Of a DNA stretch of 64,000 bases, positions 3,412 through 42,913 are shown piece after piece (the stretch's first letter is position 1; every line of letters starts with the position of its first letter). This DNA comes from Dehalococcoidia bacterium (GTDB lineage: Bacteria; Chloroflexota; Dehalococcoidia; UBA2979). Location: positions 2,383,366 through 2,447,365 of the forward strand of contig CBDCPB010000004.1 of NCBI GenBank assembly GCA_965220125.1, read 5' to 3'. A program made the translations under genes and the position numbers. The notes under the pieces are model-generated. The model had not been told where the DNA came from and made no database searches. It worked only from the letters and a program-made list of their open reading frames with translations.

Positions 3412-4323
3412 CTACTGCGCCTCGGGGTCCTGCCGCACCTCGACGCCCGCGAGGCGCTCCATCGCCTTCACGATTGCCTGCGTGCCCTCCTCGCCGAGGC
3501 CCATCGCCTCGGCGGCGGTGAGGTACTGGCGGGCGACGGCGGTGACGGCGAGCGGCACATGCCCCTCCTGCGCCGCCTCAAGGATCAGCCGCAGGTCCTT
3601 CTGCTGCAGCTTCACCATGAAGCCGGGCGCGAAGTCGCGCTGCGCCATGCGCGGTCCGAGGTTGGCGAGCTGCCACGAGCCCGCCGCGCCGCCGGAGACG
3701 GCCTCCACCGTCTTCAGCAGGTCCGCCCCCTGCGAGGCCGCGAATACCAGTGCCTCGGCCACCGCAGCGCAGGTGCCCGCGACGAGGATCTGGTTCACGA
3801 GCTTCGTCGTCTGCCCCATGCCGGACGGCCCCATCAGCGTGATGCTCGTCCCCATCGCCTCGAACACGGGGAGGCAGCGCTCGAAGGTCTCCTGCTCGCC
3901 GCCGACCATGATCGTGAGCGTGGCCTGCTCCGCGCCCCACGAGCCGCCGCTGACCGGCGCGTCGAGCATCGCGATGCCGCGCTCCGCCAGCCGCCCCGCG
4001 AGGGCGCGCGTCTCGCCCGGCGAGATCGTGCTCATGTCGATCAGCACGGAGCCCTCCGCCATCGCGCCCGCGAGCCCGTCCTCGCCCTCGACGGCGGCGA
4101 GCACGTCGGGCGTGTCCGGCACCATCGTGATCACGGTGCTCGCGGCGCGCCCGACCTCGGCGGGGGAGGCGGCGACGCTGACGCCGTCGGCTCGGAGCGC
4201 CTCGGCCTTCGCCGCCGTGCGGTTGAAGGCGACGACCGCGAAGCCCGCCTTCGCCAGGTTGCGCGCCATCGGCGCGCCCATGATGCCGGTCCCCACGACG
4301 CCGATCGTCTCCTGCTCGGACAT
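3412..4323 (-). CDS. NAD(P)-dependent 3-hydroxyisobutyrate dehydrogenase-family oxidoreductase (MmsB/GarR-like)
   Basis: N-terminal GVVGTGIMGAPMARNL dinucleotide-binding motif and overall 6-PGDH-like architecture of the 3-hydroxyacid dehydrogenase family. Confidence 0.85.
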   Translation of the reverse strand: MSEQETIGVVGTGIMGAPMARNLAKAGFAVVAFNRTAAKAEALRADGVSVAASPAEVGRAASTVITMVPDTPDVLAAVEGEDGLAGAMAEGSVLIDMSTISPGETRALAGRLAERGIAMLDAPVSGGSWGAEQATLTIMVGGEQETFERCLPVFEAMGTSITLMGPSGMGQTTKLVNQILVAGTCAAVAEALVFAASQGADLLKTVEAVSGGAAGSWQLANLGPRMAQRDFAPGFMVKLQQKDLRLILEAAQEGHVPLAVTAVARQYLTAAEAMGLGEEGTQAIVKAMERLAGVEVRQDPEAQ

Positions 4324-4533
4324 CAGCGGCCCCTCCTCGCTACTTCCGCGCGTCGCCGCGCGCGCCTCGCTGAGCCTCGGCGGCGGCTTGTGCGCCGGAG
4401 TCGCGTGGCAGCACCCAAGTCTAGGGCAGTGAACGCGAGGGTTTGCTCAGGCTGGCGCTGGTCGTGGTGTGGTTTGACGGTCCACTCCACCGCCCTCAGG
4501 CTGGCTGTCGCCAGGCCGTGAAGGAGGTTCGCC

Positions 4534-5004
4534 ATGAAGATGGACGATGAAATGCAACCCATGGGCTCCAGCCCGCTGTTCGGGAACTTCCTCCTCCGCT
4601 ACGTGGAGGAGTTCTATCTCGGTTTCCGGCTGCTGTTTGCCTTTCTGCTGGCTCTGCACGGGGCACAGAAGGCGTTCCTGCTCTGGAACTTCCCGGCCGA
4701 TCATCCGCTCGGCTGGAAGGTCGACGTCGCCGGGTGGGTGGAATTCGTCGCCGCGATCCTGATCGCGAGCGGCGTGTTCACGCGTCTGGGGGCTGGCGCA
4801 CTGGCGGTGCAGATGGTGGTCGCCTACCTCGATGTGCACTACGGCAACGATCTCTGGCCGCACATCTACCCGGCGGAGGGCGGCTTCGGCGCCACCGGCG
4901 GCGAGGTGGCGATCCTCTACTTCGGGATCGCGGGCATCATCGGCGTCCTGGGGAGCCGCAAGTACGGACTCGAGCAACTGCTGTTCAAGCGGGAGCTGCT
5001 CTAG
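4534..5004 (+). CDS. DoxX-like small integral membrane protein
   Basis: 156 aa, 3-4 hydrophobic helices; GAAGGAGG RBS 7 nt upstream of ATG. Confidence 0.5.
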   Translation: MKMDDEMQPMGSSPLFGNFLLRYVEEFYLGFRLLFAFLLALHGAQKAFLLWNFPADHPLGWKVDVAGWVEFVAAILIASGVFTRLGAGALAVQMVVAYLDVHYGNDLWPHIYPAEGGFGATGGEVAILYFGIAGIIGVLGSRKYGLEQLLFKRELL

Positions 5005-5062
5005 CGGCAGCCCTCGCGCCACCGCCTTCCGCCAGCACGTCGCTGGCCCACGGCGCCGCGCG

Positions 5063-6439
5063 TCAGGTCGCGCTCTCGAGGTAGGCCGTCCCGACGATGC
5101 GGTCCTCGACGAGCTGCGCGTACTCGGACTCGCCGAGGCCGATCAGCCCGCACAGCAGCTCCTCGTTGTGCTGGCCCAGCAGCGGGGCCGGTCCGCGCAG
5201 CGGCGTGAGCGAGGTGCGCGAGAACTGCGCCATCGGTCCGGGGTAGGGGTGCGTCCCGGCTGCCGGGTGGGTGATCTCCTGGAAGAAGCCGCGCTCGACG
5301 AGCTGCGGGTCGCCGGTCATCTCCGGCTGGTGCAGCAGCGCCACGGCCGGCACGCCCGCGCGCTGCAGCCGCTCCATCAGCGGCTGCGCCTCGTGCCGGA
5401 CGGCCCAGGCGCGGACCTCTGCCTCGAGGGCGTCCCGGTTGCGATGCCGCGAGACGATGTCGGCGTAGCGCTCGTCCGCCGCCAGCTCCGGCCGGCCCAT
5501 CTCGCCGCAGAGCGCGGCAAACGCCTCGTCCGAGGGCGTCGCGATCGCGATCCAGCGGTCGGCGGCGTCCTCCGGACCCGCCGGGGACGGCGAGGGCGCG
5601 CAAGCAAAGATGCCGTAGGGCGCGATCGAGGGGTGCGTGTTGCCCGCGTGCCCGTGCGCTCGGCGGTTCATCGAGTAGTCCATGAAGGCGTAGCTGAGGT
5701 GCTGCATCACTGCCTCGGCCTGCGAGATCTCGATCAGCTGCCCTCGGCCGCTGCGCTTGCGTGACCAGAGCGCCGCCTGCAGCGCGAAGGCCACCGTCGC
5801 GCCGGCGTTCGGATCGCCGTGCAGCGAGGCGGGCGTGAGCGAGGGGTCGGCGTCGCTGTAGCCGCGCAGCATCGTGTGGCCGACGACCGCTTCCATGACG
5901 TTGCCGTAGCCCTTGTAGTGCTCGTACGGCCCGTCGATCCCGAAGCCCGGGAAGCGCACCATCACCAGCCGCGGGTTGATCGCCGAGAGCGTCTCCCAGT
6001 CGATCCCGAGGTTGCCGACGACGTCGGCGGCGCCGTTCTCAATGAAGGCGTCCGAGCGTTTCACCAGCTCATGGAACAGCTCGCGGCCGCGCTCGCGCCG
6101 CAGGTCGAGCGTGATCGACTTGCAGCCGCGCTTGCCGTAGTTGAACCAGGCCTGGCGGTTCCAGAAGCCCTCGCTGCCGTCGCGGTTCAGGTAGTAGGTG
6201 CCCGTCGTCCCGGCGAGCATCACGGGGCTGACGTGGCGCGAGTTCGTGCGCGTCGGGTTGAGGTGCTGGATCGACTCGACCTCGATCACCTCGGCGCCGA
6301 GGTCGGAGAGCAGGACGGTGGCGAACGGTCCCGCCCAGACGATCGCCTGCGCGAGCACGCGCACGCCCTCGAGCGGCAGGCGGCGGGCGGGCGCTTCCGC
6401 GTCCGCCGCCGCGGCGTCCGGCTGCTTGCTGGCGGTCAT
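5063..6439 (-). CDS. CoA-transferase family III (CaiB/BaiF) protein
   Basis: N-terminal 'LEGVRVL...GP...LLSDLGAEVIEVE' motif and family III architecture. 3' of an acyl-CoA dehydrogenase gene on the same strand. Confidence 0.85.
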   Translation of the reverse strand: MTASKQPDAAAADAEAPARRLPLEGVRVLAQAIVWAGPFATVLLSDLGAEVIEVESIQHLNPTRTNSRHVSPVMLAGTTGTYYLNRDGSEGFWNRQAWFNYGKRGCKSITLDLRRERGRELFHELVKRSDAFIENGAADVVGNLGIDWETLSAINPRLVMVRFPGFGIDGPYEHYKGYGNVMEAVVGHTMLRGYSDADPSLTPASLHGDPNAGATVAFALQAALWSRKRSGRGQLIEISQAEAVMQHLSYAFMDYSMNRRAHGHAGNTHPSIAPYGIFACAPSPSPAGPEDAADRWIAIATPSDEAFAALCGEMGRPELAADERYADIVSRHRNRDALEAEVRAWAVRHEAQPLMERLQRAGVPAVALLHQPEMTGDPQLVERGFFQEITHPAAGTHPYPGPMAQFSRTSLTPLRGPAPLLGQHNEELLCGLIGLGESEYAQLVEDRIVGTAYLESAT

Positions 6440-6457
6440 CTCCTCGGCCCGCTCGCG

Positions 6458-7720
<1,263 letters not shown>

Positions 7721-7828
7721 CGCAACCTCCCGATCTTCGCGATGGCGATGCTAGCAGCCTCGCGCGGCGCTCGTTGTGGGTGATGGGCTTGAGGCTCGTC
7801 GCAGACGGAGTTTGGCCCGCGCGCCCCT

Positions 7829-8257
7829 TCAGGCCGCGGTCACCTCGACGACGAGGCTGTGTCCCACGGCCCGGAGTGCCTTCTGGACCTGGCTGACGTG
7901 AGAGCGGTGGTCAGGGTTGGCCAGCTTTCGCACGGCCGACTCGCTGATCCCGAGCCTGTCAGCGAGCTCCACCTTGGTGATGCGCTGGGCGCGCATTGCC
8001 GTGTAGAGCGCGAGCTTGGCAGCCACGACGGGCTGCACGGCGACGAGCACCTGACCGGCGACTGCCTCGCCGGGGGCGGGGATGTTCCGCTTCTCGTGGA
8101 CGTATCCGGCGAGTGCGGTCGCGAGGGAGTCTTCCGCCATCTCCAGGGCCTCGGACCGATCTTCTCCCCCTGTGATGGCCTCTGGAACGTCGGGAAAGGT
8201 GGCTACCAGCCATCCCTCCTCATCGGTCGTGAGTTGACAGGGGTATTGGTAGATCAT
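7829..8257 (-). CDS. hicB: HicB-family antitoxin (UPF0150 fold plus C-terminal HTH)
   Basis: N-terminus MIYQYPCQLTTDEEGWLVATFPDVPEAITGGEDRSEALEMAED matches the HicB consensus; C-terminal RITKVELADRLGISESAVRKL HTH. Confidence 0.7.
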   Translation of the reverse strand: MIYQYPCQLTTDEEGWLVATFPDVPEAITGGEDRSEALEMAEDSLATALAGYVHEKRNIPAPGEAVAGQVLVAVQPVVAAKLALYTAMRAQRITKVELADRLGISESAVRKLANPDHRSHVSQVQKALRAVGHSLVVEVTAA

Positions 8258-8432
8258 CGCTCAGAACTCCCGTTGATCGGATGTCCAGTTGACGCAGCAT
8301 CGCGGCCAGCATTCCCCGTGACAGCTCGCCTCGCTTCACCGTCGTGAACCGCGAGCCGATGTAAAGCCGGCCGTGACTCCCCTTGCCATGCGCCGGATCG
8401 AAACGGAAGGCTTGTCGGCCGCAGTATCGCAC
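8220..8432 (-). CDS. hicA: HicA-family mRNA interferase toxin
   Basis: 70 aa with the GSHGRLY...TTVKRG HicA-like core (dsRBD-like), immediately upstream of and overlapping hicB. Confidence 0.55.
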   Translation of the reverse strand: MRYCGRQAFRFDPAHGKGSHGRLYIGSRFTTVKRGELSRGMLAAMLRQLDIRSTGVLSDDLPIPLSTHDR

Positions 8433-11649: not shown

Positions 11650-12882
11650 ATGGCGGACTCCGAAGGCCGGGCGGACGGACTGCCCCTCGAGGGGATTCGC
11701 GTGCTCGATCTCACGCAGGGCGCCGCCGGCCCCTACGCCACGAAGCTCTACGCCGACTACGGCGCGGACGTGATCAAGATCGAGCGCCCCGACGGCGGCG
11801 ATCCGATGCGTCGCGTCGGCCCCTTCCCGGACGACGAGCCGCACCCGGAACGGGCCGGCGTCTTCCTGCACATCAACACCGGCAAGCGCAGCGTCACGCT
11901 CAACCTCAAGACCGCGAGCGGGCAGCGGATCCTGCAGCGCCTCGCCGCCAGCGCCGACCTCGTGTTCGAGAACTTCCGCCCGGGCACGCTCGAACGGCTC
12001 GGACTCGCCGCCGAGCGCCTCGCCGCACTGCGCCCGCAGGCCTCGCTGATCCGGCTCTCCAACTTCGGGCAGTACGGCCCCTACCGCGACTTCGAGGCCG
12101 ACGACATGCTGCTCTACGCGGCCGGAGGGGTGTTGCAGGTCACCGGCGTGCCGGAGCGCGAGCCGGTCAAGATCGGGCTCTACGCGCCGCTCTTCCTCAC
12201 CGGCGCCGTGGCCGCGGCGCAGTCGTTCGGGGCGCTGATGGCCGCCGACCGCGACGGCGTGGGGCAGACGGTCGACATCTCGATGCAGGACGTGCTTGCC
12301 GCCTCGATGGACCGCGGCGGGCCGAACCTGGTCGCCTGGCAGTACTCGGGCTCGATGATGCACATGCGGATGCGCGAGCTGCGGCGCAACGCGATCCCGC
12401 GAGGCGTCTACCCCTGCCAGGACGGCTACGTCTTCGTCAACGGCACGTTGCAGTGGTTCGACCGCTTCTGCCGCATGATCGGGCGGCCCGACCTGATCGA
12501 TGACGAGGAGACGCTCGCCCAGCTCGAACATATCGAGTACGGCGAGCGCTTCGATGGGTTGCTCTACCCCTGGCTGCTGGAGCGCACGAAGCAGCAGGTC
12601 ATGGAGGAGGCGCAGCAGGAGGGCCTCCCCGTGGGCGCGATCAACTCGATGGCCGACGTCTTCGCCGACCCGCACCTGCGCGCGCGTGAGTTCATCACCA
12701 CGATCGAGCACCCGGAGGCGGGCGCCTTCGAGTTCCCCGGGCTGCCCTTCCGCATGCACGGCACGCCGGGCCAGCTGCGCCGCGCCCCGCTGCTCGGCGA
12801 GCACACCAGCGAGGTGCTGACCTCGGAGCTTGGTTACGCGCCCGAGGACATCGTGATCCTGCGTCAGCGCAACATCGTCTGA
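11650..12882 (+). CDS. CoA-transferase family III (CaiB/BaiF) protein
   Basis: LEGIRVLDLTQGAAGPYATKLYADYGADVIKIE N-terminal motif. Divergent from the PrpF-like operon across an ~110-bp promoter region. Confidence 0.85.
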   Translation: MADSEGRADGLPLEGIRVLDLTQGAAGPYATKLYADYGADVIKIERPDGGDPMRRVGPFPDDEPHPERAGVFLHINTGKRSVTLNLKTASGQRILQRLAASADLVFENFRPGTLERLGLAAERLAALRPQASLIRLSNFGQYGPYRDFEADDMLLYAAGGVLQVTGVPEREPVKIGLYAPLFLTGAVAAAQSFGALMAADRDGVGQTVDISMQDVLAASMDRGGPNLVAWQYSGSMMHMRMRELRRNAIPRGVYPCQDGYVFVNGTLQWFDRFCRMIGRPDLIDDEETLAQLEHIEYGERFDGLLYPWLLERTKQQVMEEAQQEGLPVGAINSMADVFADPHLRAREFITTIEHPEAGAFEFPGLPFRMHGTPGQLRRAPLLGEHTSEVLTSELGYAPEDIVILRQRNIV

Positions 12883-12895
12883 GGAGGCGGCGGAC

Positions 12896-14599
12896 GTGAG
12901 GCTGGCGCTCGCCGCCGGACTGCTGCTGCTCGTCGCGGCCGCGTGCGCAGGCGGCGGGTCCGTGCCCACGCCCACGGCCACCCCGACGCCGCCCGCCAGC
13001 GCCGCGCCTGCGACTGCCACGCCCGACCCTCGCGAAGCGGTCGCGGTCCTCGTCGCGGATCCCGCCGAGCGCGCCCGCCTTGAGGCAGCGCTGGCGTCGT
13101 CGGCCGGTTTCGTCCCTGCCGCCGGCGTCGCGCGAGTGCAGTGGGCGATCGCCGATATACCGCTGTCGGGCTCCCTGCCGCTCGTGCTTGCGCGCTGGGC
13201 GGCGATCACGGACCAGCGGCGCGACGTGCTGGACCTGGGCCGCGCCGACGTACTGCGCATCCTGCGCGGCGAGGTCCGCGACTGGTCCCAGCTGGGCGGA
13301 AGCCAACAGCCAATCGTCGCGTACCTCCCCGCCTCGCACGCGGCCCGCATCGCGGGCGCCCTCGGCGTCCCGTCCGCCGAGCTGGCAGCGGAACTGCTGC
13401 CGGACGGGGAGGTGGCCGACCGCGTCGCGTCCACGCCGGGCGCGTTCGCGCTGATCGCGCCCGAGCAGCTGCGCCTCGGCGTGCTCGCGCTCACCGTGGA
13501 CGGCCACGACCCGTACCGCGACCCGGCAGGGGAGTCGCCGCTGAGCGCGGTGCGCTGGATCCGTGCGCCCGGCCTCGGGGACGCCGTCAGGCTGGCCGCC
13601 GTCGCCGGCCTCGAGGCGGCTCAGCCATTCGACCCGGCGGGCATGCTGGTCACGGGCGAGCTGGTCCCGGCTCGATGCACGAACGCGGCGCTCGCCGGCC
13701 TGGACGACTACGGGGCGATGTTCGAGGGCGTGCGCGAGGCGGTAGCGGCTGCGGACATTGCAGTCGCGGCGCTCGAGACGTCGCTCACGGACCTCGCCGA
13801 GCCGACGCCGTGCGTCTCGACCTTCGTGCTGCAGGGCAGCCCCCGCGTCGTCGGCGCGGTGTCCGAGGCCGGGGTTGACGTGATGCTCACAGCCGGCAAC
13901 CACATGCTGGATTGCTGGGAGGGCTGCTCCGGTACGGGGGCGCTGCTCGACACGCTGGCGCGGCTGGAGGAAGCCGGCATCGCCACCGCCGGCGCCGGCG
14001 AGGATCTGAGCGCCGCTCGCGCGCCGGCCGTGGTCGAGGTCCACACGGCGCACGGCTTCGTGCGCTTCGCCTTCCTCGGCTACGACACGATCGCGCCCTG
14101 GAACGCGGCCACGGAGCAGAAGCCGGGCACGGCCCCGCTCAGCGCCGCGAGCGTGCGCGAGGACGTGCGCGCCGCGCTCCTCCTCGCGGATCACGTCGTG
14201 GTCGGGGCGAACTGGGGCGTCGAGTACACGGCCGACCCGACGGCCTCCCAGCGCGAGATCGCCGGGATCGCGATCGAGGCCGGCGCGACGTTCGTGATCG
14301 GCAACCATCCCCACTGGGTGCAGGCGGTCGAGCACTTCGAGAGCGCGCTCGTCGCGTACTCCTTCGGCAACTTCGTCTTCGATCAGTCCTGGTCGGTGGA
14401 GACGACGCAGGGGATGGTGATGGAACTGGGATTCACGCGCGATCGGCCAATCGGCTACCGGATCCGTCCGGTCGTGATCCGTGGCGACGGCGGCGGGCCA
14501 CGCTGGATCTACCGCCCCGAGTTCGTCGACCCGGCCGCCGAGGGCCGCACCATCCTCGATCGCATCTGGCAGGCCCAGGACCGGCTGCCCGCGCGGTAG
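12896..14599 (+). CDS. CapA-family (PGA_cap metallophosphatase-like) lipoprotein with unknown N-terminal domain, paralog 1
   Basis: Lipoprotein signal (LLLVAAACAGG) and a Pro/Thr/Ala linker. C-terminal 'GNHMLDCWEGC ... GANWGVEYT ... GNHPHWVQ ... FGNFVFDQ' matches the CapA/PgsA-type phosphoesterase family. Confidence 0.75.
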   Translation: MRLALAAGLLLLVAAACAGGGSVPTPTATPTPPASAAPATATPDPREAVAVLVADPAERARLEAALASSAGFVPAAGVARVQWAIADIPLSGSLPLVLARWAAITDQRRDVLDLGRADVLRILRGEVRDWSQLGGSQQPIVAYLPASHAARIAGALGVPSAELAAELLPDGEVADRVASTPGAFALIAPEQLRLGVLALTVDGHDPYRDPAGESPLSAVRWIRAPGLGDAVRLAAVAGLEAAQPFDPAGMLVTGELVPARCTNAALAGLDDYGAMFEGVREAVAAADIAVAALETSLTDLAEPTPCVSTFVLQGSPRVVGAVSEAGVDVMLTAGNHMLDCWEGCSGTGALLDTLARLEEAGIATAGAGEDLSAARAPAVVEVHTAHGFVRFAFLGYDTIAPWNAATEQKPGTAPLSAASVREDVRAALLLADHVVVGANWGVEYTADPTASQREIAGIAIEAGATFVIGNHPHWVQAVEHFESALVAYSFGNFVFDQSWSVETTQGMVMELGFTRDRPIGYRIRPVVIRGDGGGPRWIYRPEFVDPAAEGRTILDRIWQAQDRLPAR

Positions 14600-14945
14600 G
14601 CGCCGCTCTCCGCGCGGACCTGGCACGGGTGCATGTGCGAGTCACCGCGACCACAACGCGACGGAACCGGGTACCGATCCGCCGAGGTGCGACCCCTCCC
14701 GGGCTTGAGCCCCGGAGATCGGGTCGTCTTCGCCATCGCGGACGGACGGCGATCGGCGAGTGGTCTGGCGCCGAGTGCTTCCTCGCGGGTGACGCGCGCC
14801 CGCCCACGGATTCATCAGCGCCTGCGCGCAGCCCTCCGCCCTCGTCACGCTCGCGTCCGCCGCCGAGCCGGCACCGCCTCCGTCTCCACCTTGCGGGAAC
14901 CCTCGGCCGCTCGCGCGCGTCCTGAGAGTGAGAGCGGAGCGCGGG

Positions 14946-16799
14946 ATGCCAATCGACGGCGCGAGCGGGATCGGCAGGCGGGTGCGCCGCGCGCAGCGTG
15001 TGCTGCCGTTGCTGACGGCCCCCGCACTTGCGCTTTCACTGGCGATCGTCCTGGGCGCCTGCAGCGCCTCGCCCGGCGGCACGCCGCCACCCGCCACGCT
15101 TACGGCGACCGCGACGCCATTGGCGGCGCCCTCGCCGACCGCCACCGCTGAGCCGACGGCCACGCCTACCCCAACACCAACCGCCGCGCCCACGGCGACC
15201 CCCGCTGCGGCGACTCCGACGCCCGAATCCGGCGAGGCGGTCGCGATCCTCGTGTCGGATCCCGCCGAGGCCGCCCGCCTCGAGGTGGCGCTGGCGGCGG
15301 CGGCCGGCTTCAATCCGGCCTCCGGCGATGCCGCGACGCAGTGGGCGATCGCCGACGCGCCGCTGTCCGGCGCCCGGCCGATCGTGCTCGCGCGCTGGGC
15401 GGCAGTGACGGACCAGCGGCGCGACGTGCTGGACCTGGAACGCGACGACGTGCTGCGCATCCTCCGCGGCGAAGTCGGCAACTGGTTCCAGCTCGGCGGC
15501 AGCCCGCAGCCGATCGCCGTCTATCTCCCCGCTTCAGAGGCGGACCGCATCGCGGGTGCGCTCGGCATCCCGCCGGCCGATCTGGCAGCGGAACTGCTGC
15601 CGGATGGCGAGGTAGTCGAGCGCGTCGCCGGCACGCCGGGAGCGTTCGCGCTGATTGAGCCGGAGCAGCTGCGCCTCGGCGTGCTCGCGCTCACCGTCGA
15701 CGGCCACGACCCGTACCGCGACCCGGCACGGGAGTCGCCGCTGAGCGCGGTGCGCTGGATCCGCGCCCCCGGCCTTGGCGACGCCGTGAGGCTCGCCGCC
15801 GCCGCCGGCCTCGCGGCCGCTCCGCCGTTCGACCCCGCGGGGATGCTCGTCACCGGCGACCTGATCCCGGTGCGCTGCAGCAACTACGTGCTGGCCCGGC
15901 TCGACGACTACGGGGCGATGTTCGACGGCGTGGGCGACGCGATTGCGTCTGCCGACATCGCCGTCGTCCCGCTTGAAGCGTCGCTCACGGACCTCGCCGA
16001 CCCTACGCCCTGCAGGGAGACGTACATGCTGCAGGGCAGCCCTCGCGTCGTCGACGCGGCGGCCGAGGCCGGCGTGGACGTGATGTTCACGATCGGCAAC
16101 CACATGCTGGACTGCTGGCTGGGCTGCTCGCCTGCCGGGGCGCTGCTCGACACACTGGAGCGGCTGGAGGAGGCAGGCATCGCGACCGCCGGAGCCGGCG
16201 AGAATCTGAGCGCCGCTCGCGCGCCGGCCGTGTTCGAGGTCCACACGGCGCACGGCTTCGTGCGCTTCGCCTTCGTCGGCTACGACTCGATTGCACCCTG
16301 GCAGTCGGCCAACGCGATCACGCCGGGCACCGCTCCCCTCGACGTCGCGAGCGTGCGCGAGGATGTGCGCGCGGCGCTTGAACTCGCGGACTACGTCGTG
16401 TTCGGGGCGAGCTGGGGCGTGGAGTACACCGCCGACCCGACGGACTCCCAGCGCGAGATCGCGGGGATCGCGATCGAGGAGGGCGCGACGCTCGTGATCG
16501 GCAACCACCCGCACTGGGTGCAGGCGGTCGAGCACTTCGACGACGCGCTCGTGGCCTATGCCCTCGGCAACTTCGTCTTCGATCAGGACTGGTCGGTGGA
16601 GACGACGCAGGGGATGGTGCTGGAGTTGGGCTTCACGCCCGATCGGCTGATCGGCTACCGCATCCGTCCGATTGTGATCCGCGGCGACGGCGGCGAGGCG
16701 CGCTGGATCTACCGCCCGGAGTTCGTAGAGCCCGCCGCCGAGGGCCGCCCCATCCTCGATCGTGTGTGGCAGGCGCAGGACCGGTTGCCGGAGCGGTAG
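14946..16799 (+). CDS. CapA-family lipoprotein, paralog 2 (tandem duplicate)
   Basis: ~80% identical to 12896-14599 with long identical nucleotide blocks; own lipoprotein signal (AIVLGACSA). Confidence 0.75.
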   Translation: MPIDGASGIGRRVRRAQRVLPLLTAPALALSLAIVLGACSASPGGTPPPATLTATATPLAAPSPTATAEPTATPTPTPTAAPTATPAAATPTPESGEAVAILVSDPAEAARLEVALAAAAGFNPASGDAATQWAIADAPLSGARPIVLARWAAVTDQRRDVLDLERDDVLRILRGEVGNWFQLGGSPQPIAVYLPASEADRIAGALGIPPADLAAELLPDGEVVERVAGTPGAFALIEPEQLRLGVLALTVDGHDPYRDPARESPLSAVRWIRAPGLGDAVRLAAAAGLAAAPPFDPAGMLVTGDLIPVRCSNYVLARLDDYGAMFDGVGDAIASADIAVVPLEASLTDLADPTPCRETYMLQGSPRVVDAAAEAGVDVMFTIGNHMLDCWLGCSPAGALLDTLERLEEAGIATAGAGENLSAARAPAVFEVHTAHGFVRFAFVGYDSIAPWQSANAITPGTAPLDVASVREDVRAALELADYVVFGASWGVEYTADPTDSQREIAGIAIEEGATLVIGNHPHWVQAVEHFDDALVAYALGNFVFDQDWSVETTQGMVLELGFTPDRLIGYRIRPIVIRGDGGEARWIYRPEFVEPAAEGRPILDRVWQAQDRLPER

Positions 16800-16891: not shown

Positions 16892-17161
16892 ATGAGAGAA
16901 ATCACTGCAGCCACCACACAACGGAACCAGGTCACCATTCCCGCCGAGGTCCGCCGCCTTCTTGGCCTGAAGCCCAGGGACAAGGTTGCGTTCACCATCG
17001 AGGACGGGGGTGCGGTGCGCCTGGCGGCGGCGTCCTTCACGCTGGAGTCGACGTACGGCTCCGTGCAGCCCTCAAGCCACCCCGAGGACTTCGATGAGGT
17101 GTCCCGGAATGCCAAGGATGCCAAGGCTGAGCAGACCGCACGCGAACTAAGTGACGCGTGA
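16892..17161 (+). CDS. vapB: AbrB/MazE/SpoVT-fold antitoxin (VapB-like)
   Basis: 'QVTIPAEVRRLLGLKPRDKVAFTIEDGG-VRL' swapped-hairpin motif; ATGA overlap with the downstream PIN gene. AT-rich promoter island 16800-16890 upstream. Confidence 0.7.
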   Translation: MREITAATTQRNQVTIPAEVRRLLGLKPRDKVAFTIEDGGAVRLAAASFTLESTYGSVQPSSHPEDFDEVSRNAKDAKAEQTARELSDA

Positions 17162-17571
17162 GATTCCTCGATACGAACGTCATCCTCAGGTACCTGACCA
17201 GGGATGATGAGGCCAAGGCTGAAGCCTGCTACCAGTTGTTCCAGCAGGTACGGCGCGGGGAGGAAGAGCTCGTCACCTGCGAGGCGATCGTCACGGAAGT
17301 CGTCTACGTGCTTTCCTCCGCTCGCGCTCCCTACAGGCTGAGCCACGAGGAGATTCGAGCCCGGCTCGTACCGATCCTGACGCTTCGGGGCCTCAGGCTC
17401 CCTCAGAAGCGCGTCTACCTCAGCGCTCTGGATCTCTACGCCTCATCTCCGTTCCTTGATTTCGAGGACGCTCTGGCGGTCGCCCACATGGAACGACTGG
17501 GGGTGACGGAGATCGTGAGCTACGACAGGGACTTCGATCGGTTGCCGACACTCCAGCGAGTGGAGCCGTGA
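17158..17571 (+). CDS. vapC: PIN-domain ribonuclease toxin VapC
   Basis: 'FLDTNVILRYL ... D' N-terminal acidic motif plus a later E and the C-terminal 'YDRDFDRL' aspartates typical of VapC. Confidence 0.85.
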   Translation: MRFLDTNVILRYLTRDDEAKAEACYQLFQQVRRGEEELVTCEAIVTEVVYVLSSARAPYRLSHEEIRARLVPILTLRGLRLPQKRVYLSALDLYASSPFLDFEDALAVAHMERLGVTEIVSYDRDFDRLPTLQRVEP

Positions 17572-17628: not shown

Positions 17629-18969
17629 CTACAGCGGCTTCGGCGCGTAGTCGGCGTCGATGCGCAGGACGGAGCCCATCCGCTCGTAGTCCTCGAACGG
17701 GAGTATCGAGCCCTCGCGCGCGATCGGGTCCGATCGCAGATCCGTGGCGCGGTCGGCGATGCGCCGCTCCAGCAGGTCCGCGACCTCGTCCTCGCTCAGC
17801 CCCAGCTCGGCCAGCACCGCCTCCGTGTCCGCCCCGAGGGCGGGCGCGGGTCCGCGGGCGGGGACGCCCTCGCCATCGAACCTGGCGGGCAGGTAGCGCT
17901 GGATCGGCACGCGCCCGAAGTCGCCGATCTGCAGATCGTCGAAGAACTCGCGCGCGGCCAGGTGCGGGTCCGCGATCACCTCGTCGCCCTTGAGGATCGG
18001 CCCGGCCGGAGCGCCCGCCGCCTGCAGCAGCGCGGCGACCTCGAACTTGTCCCGCTCGCGCGTCCACTCGGTGATGAGCTGGTCGAGGGCGTCGTGCTGC
18101 GCGCTGCGTGACGCGGCGTCGGCGAAGCGCGGGTCGTCGAGCCAGGCCTCGTGGCCGCTGGCGCGGCAGAAGGCCCGCCACTCCTCCTCGTTGCGCAGCG
18201 AGATCGCGACCCAGTCGTCGTCGCCGCGGCAGGGATAGGCGCCGCGCACCATGCCCGGCCGGCGGTTGCCGTCGCGTGTCTGGTGGCGTCCGTTGCGCTG
18301 GTAGTCGGCGAGCTGCGACTCGAGGACGGGCAGCGTCGCCTCCTGCATCGAGACGTCGATGATCTGGCCCTCGCCGGTGCGGTCGCGGTGGATCAGCGCG
18401 GCGAGGACGGCGGCGGCGCCGTGCAGGCCGGAGTAGGGGTCGACCCAGGTCTGGCCCGTCTTCGTCGGCCCCTCGCCGCGGTAGCCGGTCACCGTCGGCA
18501 CGCCCGAGGCGGGCTCCATCGTCATGCCGTTGGCGGGCCGGAAGGCGCTCGGGCCCGTCTGCCCGAAGCCGCTCAGGTGGAGCAGGACAAGCTGCGGGTA
18601 CTGCGCGTGCAGCTCGTGGAAGTCGAAGCCGAGGCGGCCGACGACGCCGGGCATGAAGTTCTCGACCACGGCGTCGGCCTCGGAGATGAGCCGCCGCACC
18701 AGTGCGCGGCCCTCCTCCTGCCCCAGGTCGATCATCGCCGAGCGCGTGCCGGCGTTGCGGACGGTGAAGTAGATGTTGCGGTTCCAGACCTCGCCCCCGA
18801 TGTCGTTGCGAGGCGGGAAGAGCGTGCGGTTGCCGTAGTTCCCGCCGGGCGTGAAGGCGCGCTCGACGCGGATCATGTTCGCGCCCAGATCGGAGAGGAT
18901 GCGTGTCACCAGCGGCCCGACCCAGCCCTGCGTCAGCGCAACCACCGTCAGATCCTCGAAGAAGCGCAT
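17629..18969 (-). CDS. CoA-transferase family III (CaiB/BaiF) protein
   Basis: Real start is MRFFEDLTVVALTQGWVGPLVTRILSDLGANMIRVE, with its ATG overlapping the stop of the upstream paralog (ATGA). The longer track ORF to 19713 is a read-through artefact. Confidence 0.8.
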   Translation of the reverse strand: MRFFEDLTVVALTQGWVGPLVTRILSDLGANMIRVERAFTPGGNYGNRTLFPPRNDIGGEVWNRNIYFTVRNAGTRSAMIDLGQEEGRALVRRLISEADAVVENFMPGVVGRLGFDFHELHAQYPQLVLLHLSGFGQTGPSAFRPANGMTMEPASGVPTVTGYRGEGPTKTGQTWVDPYSGLHGAAAVLAALIHRDRTGEGQIIDVSMQEATLPVLESQLADYQRNGRHQTRDGNRRPGMVRGAYPCRGDDDWVAISLRNEEEWRAFCRASGHEAWLDDPRFADAASRSAQHDALDQLITEWTRERDKFEVAALLQAAGAPAGPILKGDEVIADPHLAAREFFDDLQIGDFGRVPIQRYLPARFDGEGVPARGPAPALGADTEAVLAELGLSEDEVADLLERRIADRATDLRSDPIAREGSILPFEDYERMGSVLRIDADYAPKPL

Positions 18970-20273
18970 CAGTCCGCCCCCTCCGCCGCGGCCGCACGCA
19001 GCACCTCGCCATCGGCGTCGAGGGCGGGTGCGGGTCCGAACTGCTGGGGCGTAGCCGACATAATCGCGCCCGCGCCGCTGAGCCTCACGCCGTCCGGTCC
19101 ACCGAGCCAGTACTCGCGCTGATCGAGGTGCGGGTCGGCCAGCAGCTCCGCCACGTCGGGGACGGCGCCGAAGCCGAGCCCCAGCTCGCCGGCGCGCTGG
19201 AAGATCTCGTTCACGGTATGGCGCTCCAGCCAGGGCTGCGCGACCGCATCGAACTCCCGCCAGCGCAGGTTGCGCGTCTGCGTGCTCGTGAAGATCGGAC
19301 TGTCCGCCATGTCCGGCCGCTCGAGCAGCGTCGAGACCACGCCGGCGAAGTCGTGGTGGCCCGTGCCGACGGGCACGAAGGCGATGTAGCCGTCCTTGCA
19401 AGCCATGATGTCGTTCGGATAGCCGGGCAGGATGCGCGAGTAGTAGCGCCGCCGCACCACCCCCGACCCGAGCCAGACCACGAGGTTGTGGTCGTCCGTC
19501 ATCGTCAGCGCCTCGTGCGCCGAGACGTCGACGACGTGCGTCCGCTGCCCGCGCCGGGCAGCAGCGACGGCGGCCAGCGCGGCGATGCAGGCGTGCGTCG
19601 CCGCGAAGTAGTCGCTGATCTCGATGCCCGCGCTGAGCGGCTCGCGGTCCGGCGCGCCGCTCACGTAGGAAAACCCCGCGAGGCCCTCGATGATGTGGCT
19701 GTCGGCGCGCCACGAGGCGTACGGGCCGGTCATGCCGAAGTCGGAGATCGAGACGAAGGTCGTCTCCGGGAAGCGCTCGGCCAGGCGATCCGGATCGGCC
19801 AGCGGGAGCTGCGAGGAGATCCGCTCGCCCTCGCGCCAGTCCGAGACCAGCAGCCCGGCGCCCTCGATCAGCCGGGCCGCCAGCGCCGCCTCCTCGTCGC
19901 GTTCGAGGTCGAGCACGATGCTGCGCTTGCCGCGGTTGATGGCGGCGTGCAGTCCGCCGCCGTCGGCGTCCGGCTCATCGCCGTCGAAGGGCCCCGCGAG
20001 GCGGATCGCATCGCCGCCGGGCGGCTCGATGCGGACCACCTCGGCGCCGAACTGCGCGAGCAGTTGCGCGCAGTAGGCGACCGGACGCCCTGCCGCGATC
20101 TCGACGACGCGCAGGCCCTCGAGCGGCGTCGCCGACGCGTCGCCCTCGGTCGCTGCGTCCGATCGCTGTCCGTTCGCCCCGCTCAAGCGCACCGCCCTCC
20201 GCGCGCGGGATGGCCGCGCCCGATGGTGGTGCGCCCGCGCGCGGCGCGTCAAGCGGGGGGCCGCTTGCGTCAC
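18969..20273 (-). CDS. CoA-transferase family III (CaiB/BaiF) protein
   Basis: LEGLRVVEIAAGRPVAYCAQLLAQFGAEVVRIE motif; translationally coupled to the downstream paralog. The true start may be internal to the Arg-rich N-terminal extension. Confidence 0.8.
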   Translation of the reverse strand: MTQAAPRLTRRARAHHHRARPSRARRAVRLSGANGQRSDAATEGDASATPLEGLRVVEIAAGRPVAYCAQLLAQFGAEVVRIEPPGGDAIRLAGPFDGDEPDADGGGLHAAINRGKRSIVLDLERDEEAALAARLIEGAGLLVSDWREGERISSQLPLADPDRLAERFPETTFVSISDFGMTGPYASWRADSHIIEGLAGFSYVSGAPDREPLSAGIEISDYFAATHACIAALAAVAAARRGQRTHVVDVSAHEALTMTDDHNLVVWLGSGVVRRRYYSRILPGYPNDIMACKDGYIAFVPVGTGHHDFAGVVSTLLERPDMADSPIFTSTQTRNLRWREFDAVAQPWLERHTVNEIFQRAGELGLGFGAVPDVAELLADPHLDQREYWLGGPDGVRLSGAGAIMSATPQQFGPAPALDADGEVLRAAAAEGAD

Positions 20274-20294
20274 TGGCTGGTCCGGCAGGGTCGA

Positions 20295-21896
20295 TCACAC
20301 CCATTCCTTGGAGCGAGCGAGAGTCCAGACCAATACCAGTGCGTCGGCACATGCCCCGCTGAGCGGCTCCACAATGTGCGAGGGCAAGAATCTCGGCCTG
20401 TGGCTGACGAGGTTCCGGGTCGCTACAGCGGCTCCGAGAGTGCTCGCGATCCTGCCATCTCGATCTTTCTCGGTAGAGAGAGCCGCCCTCGACATGTCGA
20501 GGGCTCGTCGTTCGAGGTCTCCGGGCCGGTCGTCATTCTGATCGCTAGACTCCAACCTTTTGAACTCCGCGATCCAGGAGCAACCCTGTCCGAGAAGGCG
20601 AATGAATTCCCGGAGTGATCTCGGCATCCTCGACCCTTCCGAAGGACGGAGGTGCGACGACTCTTCAACGAGCACACGGGCCAGCTGCTCAACTGCTAGC
20701 GCCAACGGCCTGAGCCTTCGATTGAGGAGACCTGGAACACGATCGTGGTGCTGATCAGTGATGGTGAACGAGTAGCTTTGGAGGCTCATCAGTACCTCGA
20801 GCAGATCGTGCTCCTTACAGAACTCCACGATGTCCTCGGCGACATCACCGGGGTCGCCGCAATCTGAAGCGATCGTGGCGGCCAGCCCCTCGTTGAGTAC
20901 GGCTCTCAGGACTTCTCGAGCGTCACGGGCCGCAGACTCAACCGGATCGAGATGGCGGAGTCGGGTGGCGAGGCTCAGCCCTCCGTGTTCCTCGGCAGCA
21001 GCGAAGAAGTCCTCCCAGTCATAGCCGAAGGCATGCCCGGCGAGTCTCTCTGCGTCGCGGAGGTACTCCTGAGCGTCTTCGGACAGCGCAATGCGTTCAT
21101 CGCTCCGGTAGTCGTGTATCAGTTCAGCGAGCTTGCCGAGGAACTCGAAGAACTTGGGCTCGTCCATGCCGGACATGTCCAGCGACCGTCGCGCTCGCTG
21201 GCCCAGAACGACGCCGAGCCTTTCGCGACGAGGTGCCGGAAGCCGTTCTCCTACTGAAACGCCATCGAAAGCCTCGTAGTGGGCAGCCTCGTCTGCGAAC
21301 AGAAACAACTCCACTGCATCGAAACCGGCGGCCATCCCGTTCAACGATCGGAGCTCCTCCGTGTCCTCGGGAAGGCGGTACCGCTTCCAGAGTTGGTGCG
21401 ACGGATCCAGATGTTGTAGGAACTGAGAGTGGACATAGTGGTGCTTCTGCTGGCGCAGTAACGCAACGACATGGACTTGCCAGGGGGCGTAGTGCCGCTC
21501 AACCGTCGGAGTCAGCACAGTTCGGCCGTCGGGCATGACTGCTGGTACCCGATCGGAACCCCATTCCTCGAACGTGCTGCAGTCAGGTATCTCAAGGAAC
21601 GGGTTGCGGCCCCGCTGCGCGTCGAACGCATGCAGGCCGTCAGTGTGACCCCGCTGCAGCCTGTCCCAATCTTTTGGTGGAGACGGGGCAGGCCCACGGA
21701 CCGCCGCGTCGGCGAGGCCGTGTGTCTTTCGCTTGATGGCGTACGCGGTCGGCATGCGAGTTCGTGCCATCGGCAGAAGCAAGCAATGCCGCTCGTAGAA
21801 CTCAAGCTCGCGCGGTGACAGCCCCAGGATCCTCAGCGACCAGGCGTGCGAGACAAACTGCTGTACGTCGATGTAGCGCTCGCCGTGTCGGTTCAT
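20295..21896 (-). CDS. hypothetical 533-aa protein, no recognisable family (compositionally atypical)
   Basis: Single clean ORF with amino-acid-like composition and no long antisense ORF covering it. Local GC is visibly lower (~60%) than flanks (~72%). Stem-loop at 21915-21945 separates it from the upstream LLM gene. Confidence 0.6.
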   Translation of the reverse strand: MNRHGERYIDVQQFVSHAWSLRILGLSPRELEFYERHCLLLPMARTRMPTAYAIKRKTHGLADAAVRGPAPSPPKDWDRLQRGHTDGLHAFDAQRGRNPFLEIPDCSTFEEWGSDRVPAVMPDGRTVLTPTVERHYAPWQVHVVALLRQQKHHYVHSQFLQHLDPSHQLWKRYRLPEDTEELRSLNGMAAGFDAVELFLFADEAAHYEAFDGVSVGERLPAPRRERLGVVLGQRARRSLDMSGMDEPKFFEFLGKLAELIHDYRSDERIALSEDAQEYLRDAERLAGHAFGYDWEDFFAAAEEHGGLSLATRLRHLDPVESAARDAREVLRAVLNEGLAATIASDCGDPGDVAEDIVEFCKEHDLLEVLMSLQSYSFTITDQHHDRVPGLLNRRLRPLALAVEQLARVLVEESSHLRPSEGSRMPRSLREFIRLLGQGCSWIAEFKRLESSDQNDDRPGDLERRALDMSRAALSTEKDRDGRIASTLGAAVATRNLVSHRPRFLPSHIVEPLSGACADALVLVWTLARSKEWV

Positions 21897-21974
21897 GCAC
21901 TCCTGTCAAGCGGTTGCGGGACGCTGGATAGGTGACGTCCCCGCACCTACTTTCCCGCGATGGTCCACCGCCGC

Positions 21975-22925
21975 CTAGCGGAACGCGGGCGCGACCTCCG
22001 AGGAGAAGCGCTCGATGGCGGGCCAGTCGTAGGGGGTGTTCATCATCATGATCACCTCGGAGTAGCCGGCGTCGGCGTAGGTCTGCACCGCGTCCCGCAT
22101 CGACTCGGCGGGGCCGCCCACCGTCTGCGCGCGCTGCTCCTCCACGCTGATGCCGCGACGGCCGGCGGTGCGCTCCGTCCAACGCTCGTAGATCGCGTCC
22201 GGGATCAGCGGCGTCCCCGCCGTGAGGCTGATCTCCTCGAAGCGCCGCCCGACGTCGTTGCAGTGCTGGCGCAGCACCTCGACCTTCGGCGCGAGGTCGG
22301 CGGCGGTGCCGACGCCGTTCCAGGCGTCGGCGTGGCGCGCGACGATGTTGAGCGTGCGCCGCTCGCCCGCGCCGCCGACGAGGATCGGCGGGTGCGGGCG
22401 CTGCACGGGAGCCGGGCGGAACGGGGCCTGGCTGAGGCTGTAGTACTCGCCCTCGAAGGAGACTTCCTCCTCGTCCGACCAGAGCAGGCGGATCACCTGC
22501 AACGCCTCGTCGAGCCGATCGAGGCGTTCGCGCGCCGAGGGGAAGGGCCAGCCGTAGGCCTCGTGCTCGCGCGGGTTGTTGCCCGCGCCGATGCCGAAGT
22601 CCACCCGCCCGCCCGAGATCTGGTCGATCGTCGTCGCGACCTTGGCGAGCATGGCGGGGTTGCGGAAGAGGTTGCCCGTCACCAGCGTGCCGAGGCGCAG
22701 CCGCTCCGTCTCCGCGGCGAGCGCGGCGAGCACGACCCAGCCGTCCATGCACGGCCCCTCCGTGTCGCGCGTGCCCGTCGGCAGGAAGTGGTCGATCGTC
22801 CAGGCGCCGTCGTAGCCGAGCGCCTCGAGGCGCTGCCACGTCTCCGAGAGTTCGCCCCACTCGATGTTCTGCTGCCCGGTCTGGACGCTGAATTTCACCG
22901 CCGCCTCCGTCCTCGCGAGCGGCAC
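21975..22925 (-). CDS. LLM-class (luciferase-like) F420/flavin-dependent oxidoreductase
   Basis: TIM-barrel LLM motifs (GYDGAWTIDHF..., RLRLGTLVTG, GRVDFGIGAG). Confidence 0.85.
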   Translation of the reverse strand: MPLARTEAAVKFSVQTGQQNIEWGELSETWQRLEALGYDGAWTIDHFLPTGTRDTEGPCMDGWVVLAALAAETERLRLGTLVTGNLFRNPAMLAKVATTIDQISGGRVDFGIGAGNNPREHEAYGWPFPSARERLDRLDEALQVIRLLWSDEEEVSFEGEYYSLSQAPFRPAPVQRPHPPILVGGAGERRTLNIVARHADAWNGVGTAADLAPKVEVLRQHCNDVGRRFEEISLTAGTPLIPDAIYERWTERTAGRRGISVEEQRAQTVGGPAESMRDAVQTYADAGYSEVIMMMNTPYDWPAIERFSSEVAPAFR

Positions 22926-41906: not shown

Positions 41907-42913
41907 TGGCGACCAAGTCTGAGTTAGGCACGCTGCAATACATCGAACCAAGAAACGTCTGGGAGCACGAAGCGCATGACTTCACGCCTTGGCTTGAGGA
42001 GAACATCGACCTGCTCGGCGATGCGATAGGGCTGGATATAGAGATCACTGGCCGTGAGGTGGCCGTCGGGAGCTTCAGCCTCGACCTCCTCGGGAAGGAA
42101 GCCAATACCGAACGCACCGTGATCATCGAGAACCAACTGGAGCGAACGGATCACGATCACCTCGGCAAGACCCTCACGTACGCTGCGGGCCTCGATGCGC
42201 GGGTCATTGTATGGGTCAGCAGCGATGTCCGGGACGAGCACCGCGAGGCCATCCATTGGCTCAACGAACACACCGCTGAGACTGTTAGCTTCTTCGCCGT
42301 CGAAATCGAGATCCTCCGGATCGGCGAATCCCTGCCGGCCCTCCGGCTGAACGTCGTTGCTCAGCCCAGCGAGTTTCAGCGAGAAGTCGTCAGGAAGTCG
42401 GTGGCTCCGCCCACAGCCAGACAAACCGCATACCAGACATTCTTCACCAAGTTGGTGGAGGCGTTGCACTCAGCGCACCCAGGGTTCACACGAGTTCGCG
42501 CGGACAGCGTGAGCACAGCAACGGGCAAGAACTTCTCGACCGGAGTGCAAGGGCTAACTGTTGGCGCATGGTTCTCGGGCGGCGGGGAGCTCTGGGTGGA
42601 GACTTGGATCGCCGTGGGATCTAAGGAGCAGAACAAGATCGCTTTCGAGAGGCTCTACAATCAGCGCGAAGTGATCGAAGACACTGTGGGCGGACCGTTG
42701 ACTTGGGAGAAGAAGGAAGACCGCAAGGGCTCGCGCGTGTCGCTGCGCAGACCCGGCTCGATAGATTCGTCAGAATCTGAACTCCAAGGCCTCTCGGAGT
42801 GGGCCGTCGACCTCCTCCCCAAGTTCCGCGATGCCTTCGCTCCTCGTATAGCGGCCCTCGACCTCGACGCCCTCGTCGCCGACGCCACCAGGGACAACAG
42901 GTTTCGTCTATGA
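41906..42913 (+). CDS. PD-(D/E)XK (NucS/DUF91-like) nuclease-fold protein with a C-terminal domain I recall as DUF4268
   Basis: '[38 protein letters not shown]' is the D...E-x-Q/K restriction-endonuclease-like core. ATGA overlap with the cobA-hemD stop. Local GC is clearly lower (~57%) than the surrounding hem genes. Confidence 0.55.

Follow-up and report, generated by a model that had tools for sequence, protein, structure and literature searches.

Here, we propose that a 533-amino-acid (aa) protein encoded in a 64,000-nucleotide stretch of a Dehalococcoidia genome (Chloroflexota; NCBI GenBank assembly GCA_965220125.1, contig CBDCPB010000004.1, positions 2,383,366 to 2,447,365 of the forward strand; hereafter, the window) is, on balance, a HEPN-effector defence protein of an undescribed family, and that its gene is the cargo of a horizontally acquired 1.7-kb single-gene cassette. 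The cassette sits in an accessory-gene hotspot of a host of 72% GC, between an LLM-class oxidoreductase gene and a CoA-transferase operon, and is exchanged there by recombination. The effector role rests on sequence, predicted fold and genomic behaviour, and we regard the family as probably a new HEPN-effector family of uncultured marine bacteria with a predicted ribonuclease (RNase) activity and a predicted role in defence.

The original prediction, which was made from the letters of the window, described a single open reading frame (ORF), and this is confirmed: 533 codons plus a stop occupy positions 20295-21896 of the minus strand. The ORF is a real gene under purifying selection and not a chance ORF, because it has full-length homologues, a ratio of nonsynonymous to synonymous substitution rates (dN/dS) of 0.30 when compared with an 85.5%-identical copy in a related genome, and an AlphaFold2 model, built from a 59-sequence alignment, with a predicted local distance difference test score (pLDDT) of 90.3 (predicted template modelling score, pTM, 0.84). 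The protein is divided as follows (window coordinates):

20295..21896, minus strand: coding sequence, 533 aa plus stop, of an unnamed family whose proteins have about 510-560 aa
21342..21896, minus strand: N-terminal alpha/beta region, about aa 1-185, from the secondary structure of the model and conservation
20853..21341, minus strand: central region, all helical, about aa 186-348; F252, E267-R268 and L271 are conserved
20298..20852, minus strand: probable HEPN-like C-terminal helical bundle, about aa 349-533, from the AlphaFold2 model
20676..20690, minus strand: E403-Q-L-A-R407 (E-x3-[K/R]) in proposed helix 2, from conservation and the model
20400..20417, minus strand: R494-N495-L-V-S-H499 (Rx4H) at the end of proposed helix 3, predicted catalytic site

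HEPN domains are four-helix up-down bundles made of two hairpins, and they carry an Rx4H motif in which a polar residue (N, D or H) directly follows the arginine, along with a second conserved element in helix 2, an acidic residue typically within E-x3-[KR] (PMC3710099). All of these sequence elements are found in the C-terminal region. In the alignment of 59 members, some with as little as 18% identity, just six columns are the same in every sequence (P42, Q140, E403, R494, N495 and H499), and four of them fall here: R494 and H499 form an Rx4H motif at the end of the penultimate helix, N495 is the polar residue after the arginine, and E403, in a helix spanning residues 390-412, is followed at position 407 by R in 36 members and by K in 17 (53 of the 59). 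The proposed helices are h1 349-373, h2 390-412, h3 479-499 and h4 506-529. In the model, R494-N495-x3-H499 closes h3 and is followed by a loop (500-505) and the final helix, while an insert of extra short helices (428-473) separates the E-x3-R helix from the R-N-x3-H helix; R-N-x3-H begins 87 residues after E-x3-[R/K]. We consider the C-terminal domain likely to be HEPN-like, mainly because of these invariant residues and their structural placement in the model.

This bears on several of the earlier statements. No recognisable domain had been seen, and indeed no model of Pfam, NCBIfam (2026), PADLOC 2.0 or PHROGs matches the 533-aa protein, but a HEPN-type motif can be recognised. The absence of any nuclease motif that could be named no longer holds in view of the invariant E403-x3-R/K407 and R494-N495-x3-H499. 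Two clusters that had looked conserved, HHYVHSQF and DQHHDR, read K-YY-HSRF and D-RRDR in relatives and so are not.

The N-terminal region has short strands at residues 44-47, 116-120, 126-130 and 132-136 in the AlphaFold2 model and conserves the motifs ELEFYE, P42, D92, W112 and VERYYxPWQVH, the last with the invariant Q140. It has no match in Pfam, in PDB sequences or by Foldseek, and we propose that it is a sensor or regulatory module.

The genomic setting provides the second line of evidence. Read along the minus strand, the genes run phosphoribosyltransferase, LLM oxidoreductase, 533-aa gene and two CoA-transferases, in agreement with the original placement between a CoA-transferase operon and an LLM gene on the same strand; the gaps on the two sides of the gene measure 78 bp and 108 bp. 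The relevant features, some of them defined by comparison with loci from related genomes (L001, L002 and so on), are these:

21975..22898, minus strand: LLM-class (Bac_luciferase) oxidoreductase gene, conserved left flank, its protein 97% identical to the L003 copy
17629..20186, minus strand: two CoA_transf_3 genes, conserved right flank, from Pfam and synteny
20261..21967, no strand: variable cassette of 1,707 bp (the gene with 71 bp upstream and 34 bp downstream), from blastn breakpoints against L039
21900..21904, minus strand: putative Shine-Dalgarno-like AGGAG, 3 nt before the ATG, overlapping the TTGAC that recurs in some family loci

At locus L039, where the LLM protein has 92% identity to that of the window, the flanks are collinear and the slot holds a gene for a 579-aa SIR2_2 protein on the opposite strand. 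The blastn alignments (L039 1-1683 to window 23640-21968, and L039 3583-6213 to window 20260-17630) show that LLM-side DNA, 91.7% identical, is shared up to 7 bp past the LLM stop codon (21968) and that homology restarts 35 bp beyond the stop of the 533-aa gene (20260). Because homology breaks at 20260/20261 and at 21967/21968, the exchanged segment is 20261-21967, which in L039 is replaced by a cassette of 1,899 bp. The SIR2 gene (GC 0.625; GC at third codon positions, GC3, 0.716) has no kinship to the 533-aa protein and matches PDC-S65 of PADLOC over its full length (E 1.3e-203), PDC denoting a phage defence candidate (PMC11514479).

Nearer relatives retain the gene. The conspecific L001 genome, 97.6% identical to the window in DNA, has the same protein, and a somewhat more distant genome, L002/L003 (LLM protein 97% identical), keeps the gene in the slot at 85.5% protein identity, compared with 93-97% for the flanking proteins. 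With dN at 0.084 for the gene against 0.016-0.044 for the flanks (versus L003), the gene therefore evolves faster than its surroundings. Synteny is thus confined to very close relatives, and at 92% LLM identity the slot is already occupied by SIR2_2, so the proposed accessory status comes through this comparison intact. LLM homologues further out, at 81% and 66% identity, lie in loci without synteny, which are uninformative on what an empty site looks like, and a scan of JGI metagenomes with the CoA-transferase returned distant relatives only. A 528-aa unannotated protein near one distant LLM homologue proved unrelated to the 533-aa protein.

When window positions 10296-31863 are aligned to L001, blocks of 100% identity, including the 533-aa gene and a PIN module, alternate with blocks of 90-96%. 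At the level of sequence, this mosaic indicates frequent homologous recombination, and for that reason replacement of the cassette by homologous recombination in the conserved flanks appears to be the likelier and simplest route. Hallmarks of an integrative mobile element (island, prophage or insertion sequence) are not seen at the window locus: there is no tRNA in the 64 kb and no recombinase within 10 kb of the gene, and flanking repeats or att sites at the cassette do not exceed chance.

The composition of the gene also sets it apart, as the original prediction had noted. Its GC is 0.616 and its GC3 0.706, compared with a GC3 of 0.90-0.97 in the adjacent LLM and CoA-transferase genes and at least about 0.85 in most genes of the window; in 400-bp steps, GC is 0.60-0.63 across the gene and 0.70-0.75 in both flanks. 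Among the few stretches lying more than 1.5 standard deviations below the window mean (0.7175, standard deviation 0.036, in 600-bp steps), it is the longest. Low GC often marks accessory modules in this genome, since two other such stretches carry toxin-antitoxin components: one has a HicB-like ORF, the other a PIN toxin and a PrlF/MazE-like antitoxin. A further such stretch is a 181-aa ORF at 41924-42469.

The 533-aa gene is not the orphan that it was first called. Among 5.8 billion proteins searched, there are 118 homologue clusters at 90% identity, nearly all full length (500-560 aa, 36-84% identity), and repeating the search with the alignment in place of the single sequence gave an identical set of 118. 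An exhaustive HMMER search of 1.84 billion representatives at 50% identity gave 108 matches with E<=1e-3, of which 57 reach E<=1e-10. Full-length matches at 20-30% identity are numerous and the most distant members are at 18%; many distant homologues align only to aa 1-300/380. Named members are "hypothetical protein" throughout, including two from Acidimicrobiaceae metagenome-assembled genomes (MAGs), and all ten distant homologues that we looked up are unnamed metagenome proteins. Scans of 59 diverse members and 37 C-terminal fragments with Pfam, NCBIfam, PADLOC and PHROG gave no consistent family match. In PADLOC v2.0.0 specifically, the 533-aa protein has no match at E<=10 and the 59 members give three isolated noise matches. 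No paper describing the family was found in a literature search. The family is rare and uncharacterised. Two apparent similarities were set aside: NCBIfam MksB (condensin kleisin) weakly matches 4 of the 59 members (E 0.006-0.02) at aa 233-317 (window 20946-21200), which is probably noise, and a match to a 1,506-aa caspase-NACHT-WD40 protein is spurious, its WD40 repeats resembling aa 114-153.

The 22 family loci from GTDB species genomes belong to Acidimicrobiia/Acidimicrobiales and to Chloroflexota (Dehalococcoidia and Tepidiformaceae); one host label, Candidatus Aldehydirespirator, was confirmed as Acidimicrobiia. The family crosses phyla: a copy from Tepidiformaceae (Chloroflexota) shares 69% identity with one from Acidimicrobiales and about 55% with most other Chloroflexota copies. 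Leaving aside its own species group, the 533-aa protein is closest to a Dehalococcoidia copy (54% identity). In most family loci the gene has a GC of 0.60-0.65 whatever the GC of the host, and it lies below its flanks in 21 of the 26 loci listed (two being duplicate copies). One genome has two family copies. In L029 (10001-11562) the copy is split into three ORF fragments, a pseudogene, and in L024 (10001-11601) it is truncated to 482 aa, both of which fit a dispensable accessory gene. Apart from SB0670, the MAG labels of family members are ones that we take to be sponge metagenomes. SB0670 itself belongs to a sample series whose Poribacteria bins are listed as symbiotic Entoporibacteria (PMC7883664).

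What, then, accompanies the gene elsewhere? In an all-against-all comparison of neighbouring ORFs, the family gene is present in 24 of 24 loci and the next commonest cluster in only 4, so the gene is stand-alone and has no conserved partner. Most of its neighbours are restriction-modification, Abi, toxin-antitoxin or transposase genes. Among 109 neighbouring ORFs at the 22 loci, the top Pfam families are N6_Mtase, ResIII, SWI2_SNF2, Replic_Relax and type I restriction-modification (RM) domains, with RmuC and the IS110 and DDE transposases also frequent, and the top PADLOC matches are type I and type II RM components; these counts are raw frequencies, given without a background expectation. Near one copy lie type I RM remnants, an integrase and an IS110 transposase, and near another two transposases, NspV and a methylase; the transposases near homologues are of the IS110, ISL3 and DDE types. 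L031 has PIN, PemK, NYN, an integrase and AbiEii, a further locus an N6_N4 methylase-HNH fusion and RmuC, and yet another the methylase-HNH fusion and a STAND-like ATPase. The island at L006 carries two AbiE pairs (AbiEi/AbiEii) and a nucleotidyltransferase, as well as a DACNG/DACNH protein and an unannotated 1,191-aa protein beside the family copy (448-2163 and 4182-7757), which may be an uncharacterised conflict system. These recurrent defence-gene neighbours, together with the PDC-S65 SIR2 gene in the identical slot, place the family, by an operational definition, in defence islands or hotspots. The RM, AbiE, PIN/PemK, NYN, integrase and transposase neighbours support the original reading as an accessory gene of the defence type.

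The methylase-HNH fusion deserves separate mention. An N6_N4 DNA methylase-HNH nuclease fusion adjoins the family gene in L008 (9995-11227), L033 (5296-6816), L025, L017 and L026, either upstream or downstream, which represents three or more independent arrangements. The fusion may recur as a companion of the gene or simply reside in the same hotspots.

Some loci whose contexts are otherwise unrelated have 55-130 bp of DNA upstream of the gene in common, with TTGAC about 8 nt before the ATG. The pattern "(A/C)TTGAC-N8-ATG" is found in L006, L010, L014-L018, L020, L023 and L026 and at 21897-21910 of the window. This conservation suggests that the gene travels with its own 5' region, which may be the promoter of an mRNA with a short leader or none. 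The upstream stem-loop that had originally been ascribed to the gene did not hold up: the 84-nt upstream region folds no better than chance (z = -1.26, with 20 of 200 shuffles folding equally well), and no consensus promoter or terminator was found around the gene.

Several findings weigh against a HEPN-effector defence protein. No Pfam model of the HEPN clan matches the 59 members or the 37 C-terminal fragments, bar one Ribonuc_2-5A match at E 0.012, and searches of PDB sequences with full-length and C-terminal profiles returned noise only. The N-terminal part, and not the putative effector, is best conserved in distant homologues, which is unusual for a mere sensor. Phage and plasmid collections contain no homologues, giving no direct link to a mobile element, and the neighbours of the gene in the window are metabolic, with no adjacent RM or Abi gene. 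PDC-S65 is itself merely a candidate defence gene. Foldseek against PDB found nothing significant (best E 0.89), and a DUF86-like consensus, used to retrieve HepT sequences for a profile comparison, matched nothing.

One alternative is that the C-terminal bundle is non-catalytic, a helical scaffold, regulator or binding protein in which R-N-x3-H serves binding or structure, or that the N-terminal module is the true active part. The missing HEPN-clan matches and the better conserved N-terminus are what such a protein could show, and the invariance of E403, R494, N495 and H499 at the positions expected of a HEPN site stands on the other side; we consider this alternative unlikely.

Slightly less probable still, in our estimate, is that the protein is a HEPN RNase with another conflict or selfish role, for example as a toxin that stabilises the cassette or causes addiction to it, as a growth arrester induced by stress, or as a guard of RM systems in the manner of PrrC/RloC. 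The HEPN evidence applies equally to it. RM genes are the commonest neighbours of the family, in L031 hsdR-hsdS lies directly upstream of the family gene, the methylase-HNH fusion adjoins it in several loci, and other low-GC patches of the window are toxin-antitoxin modules. Against an addiction role, no conserved partner accompanies the gene. For a type II toxin-antitoxin system (HEPN-MNT or RnlAB), there is no co-conserved antitoxin gene (at most 4 of 24 loci share any neighbour), and there is no room for one beside the 533-aa gene, because the gaps are only the 78 and 108 bp given above. A type III RNA antitoxin or other non-coding RNA was considered and rejected, as positions 19900-22300 match no Rfam family and contain no tandem repeats of note. 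Guarding RM systems cannot be what the family is dedicated to in general, because no RM genes lie within 10 kb of the window copy, and the allelic alternative in the slot is a SIR2 defence candidate.

That the 533-aa gene is instead a native housekeeping gene of unusual composition, such as an RNA-processing enzyme, is very improbable: it is intact, under purifying selection (dN/dS 0.30) and syntenic in the closest relatives, but replacement of the cassette by an unrelated SIR2 gene in L039 and a patchy distribution, which spans two phyla and unrelated contexts with two copies in an occasional genome, largely exclude it, and it is further opposed by the absence of the gene from the (non-syntenic) loci of more distant LLM homologues, the pseudogene in L029, a GC3 of 0.71 against 0.9 or more, and a predicted structure that matches no housekeeping enzyme by Foldseek against PDB. 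The original assignment to horizontally acquired accessory genes of the stand-alone defence, abortive-infection or toxin type is thus supported, with the function inferred.

A HEPN-bearing single-gene module in a defence island is a kind already known; the family, its N-terminal architecture and its occurrence lie outside every library that we searched. Among the closest known systems are the HepT/DUF86 HEPN toxins of HEPN-MNT modules (PDB 5yep_B SO_3166, 8xdj_A and 1wwp_B) and the RnlA/LsoA (RNase LS) toxins. HepT proteins measure about 130 aa, and the MNT nucleotidyltransferase encoded beside them neutralises them. The 533-aa protein differs in having about 350 extra N-terminal residues and no MNT or other conserved neighbour, and its family has no DUF86 or HEPN Pfam match. 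AbiD/AbiF (Abi_2), AbiJ, AbiU2, AbiV and ApeA resemble it more closely in that each is one polypeptide with a non-HEPN N-terminus and a C-terminal HEPN RNase (predicted in our case) and is found in defence islands (PMC3710099). Their Pfam and PADLOC models, however, match none of the 59 members, the N-terminal and central regions of our protein have no detectable relative, and for our family the defence role is a prediction. The anticodon nucleases PrrC and RloC also have a C-terminal HEPN-type RNase and adjoin type I RM genes (PMC3710099). The family shares with them the position after hsdR-hsdS in L031 and the abundance of RM neighbours, and departs from them in lacking an ABC-ATPase N-terminal domain and in an RM linkage that is not obligatory (there is none at the window). 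PDC-S65, a single-gene SIR2_2 candidate, is a positional allele, a single low-GC gene in exactly the same slot; it has a SIR2 NADase-type fold, lies on the opposite strand and is an unrelated protein.

In light of the protein being a predicted HEPN effector, how might it work? No antitoxin gene or RNA accompanies the gene, so control would be intramolecular or would come through host or phage factors, and the N-terminal part, large and conserved, would be the obvious one to exert it. The protein may be made constitutively and held inactive by its own N-terminal two-thirds until a trigger, most plausibly phage infection, lifts the inhibition. Characterised HEPN RNases build their active site from paired HEPN domains (PMC3710099). 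By analogy, pairing of two HEPN domains of the 533-aa protein would bring their R-N-x3-H motifs and E403 together in an RNase site that needs no metal. There R494 and H499 would cleave RNA, with N495 and E403 assisting. Cutting of cellular and/or phage RNA could then halt growth, an abortive-infection style of defence. In this scheme RNase activity, dimerisation, auto-inhibition, trigger and anti-phage role are all predicted from analogy with known HEPN proteins.

Other parts of the window and of the related loci also vary. Past the second CoA-transferase gene lies a second variable slot, which in the window (16892-17571, plus strand) holds the low-GC PrlF/MazE-like antitoxin and PIN toxin; L003 has HTH_3 and Fic there, and L039 two small ORFs, one matching PDC-S04 of PADLOC. 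Beside it, positions 12857-14599 and 14793-16799 (plus strand) are tandem paralogous PGA_cap-domain genes of about 85% DNA identity, of which L003 has one copy only, plus a cupin gene. A low-GC ORF at 7829-8260 (minus strand), with a weak HicB-like antitoxin match and a helix-turn-helix (HTH) match, may be a toxin-antitoxin remnant, and a 181-aa ORF at 41924-42469 (minus strand; GC 0.59, no Pfam match) may be another accessory insertion.

The scope of these findings is modest, in that new HEPN candidate defence genes are often found and the support here is computational. They do provide a clean natural experiment, identical flanks carrying either the 533-aa gene or the SIR2 candidate, and this allele pair supports both genes as defence cargo. 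The junction of the LLM and CoA-transferase genes and the second, toxin-antitoxin-swapping slot 3 kb away are hotspots that could be mined for more systems, in source lineages that are uncultured and whose immune repertoire is barely covered by current model libraries. We tentatively go further, with less than even confidence, and picture a single-protein immune system in which an unusually conserved N-terminal sensor of ~350 residues switches on a divergent HEPN RNase, carried by a promoter-bearing mini-cassette that crosses phyla (Acidimicrobiia and Chloroflexota) and is swapped with other single-gene defences at fixed hotspots, in uncultured and at least partly sponge-associated communities. 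If the proposed effector is correct, the stand-alone defence genes would gain a HEPN-effector family that is as yet uncharacterised and whose sensor or regulatory architecture is new.

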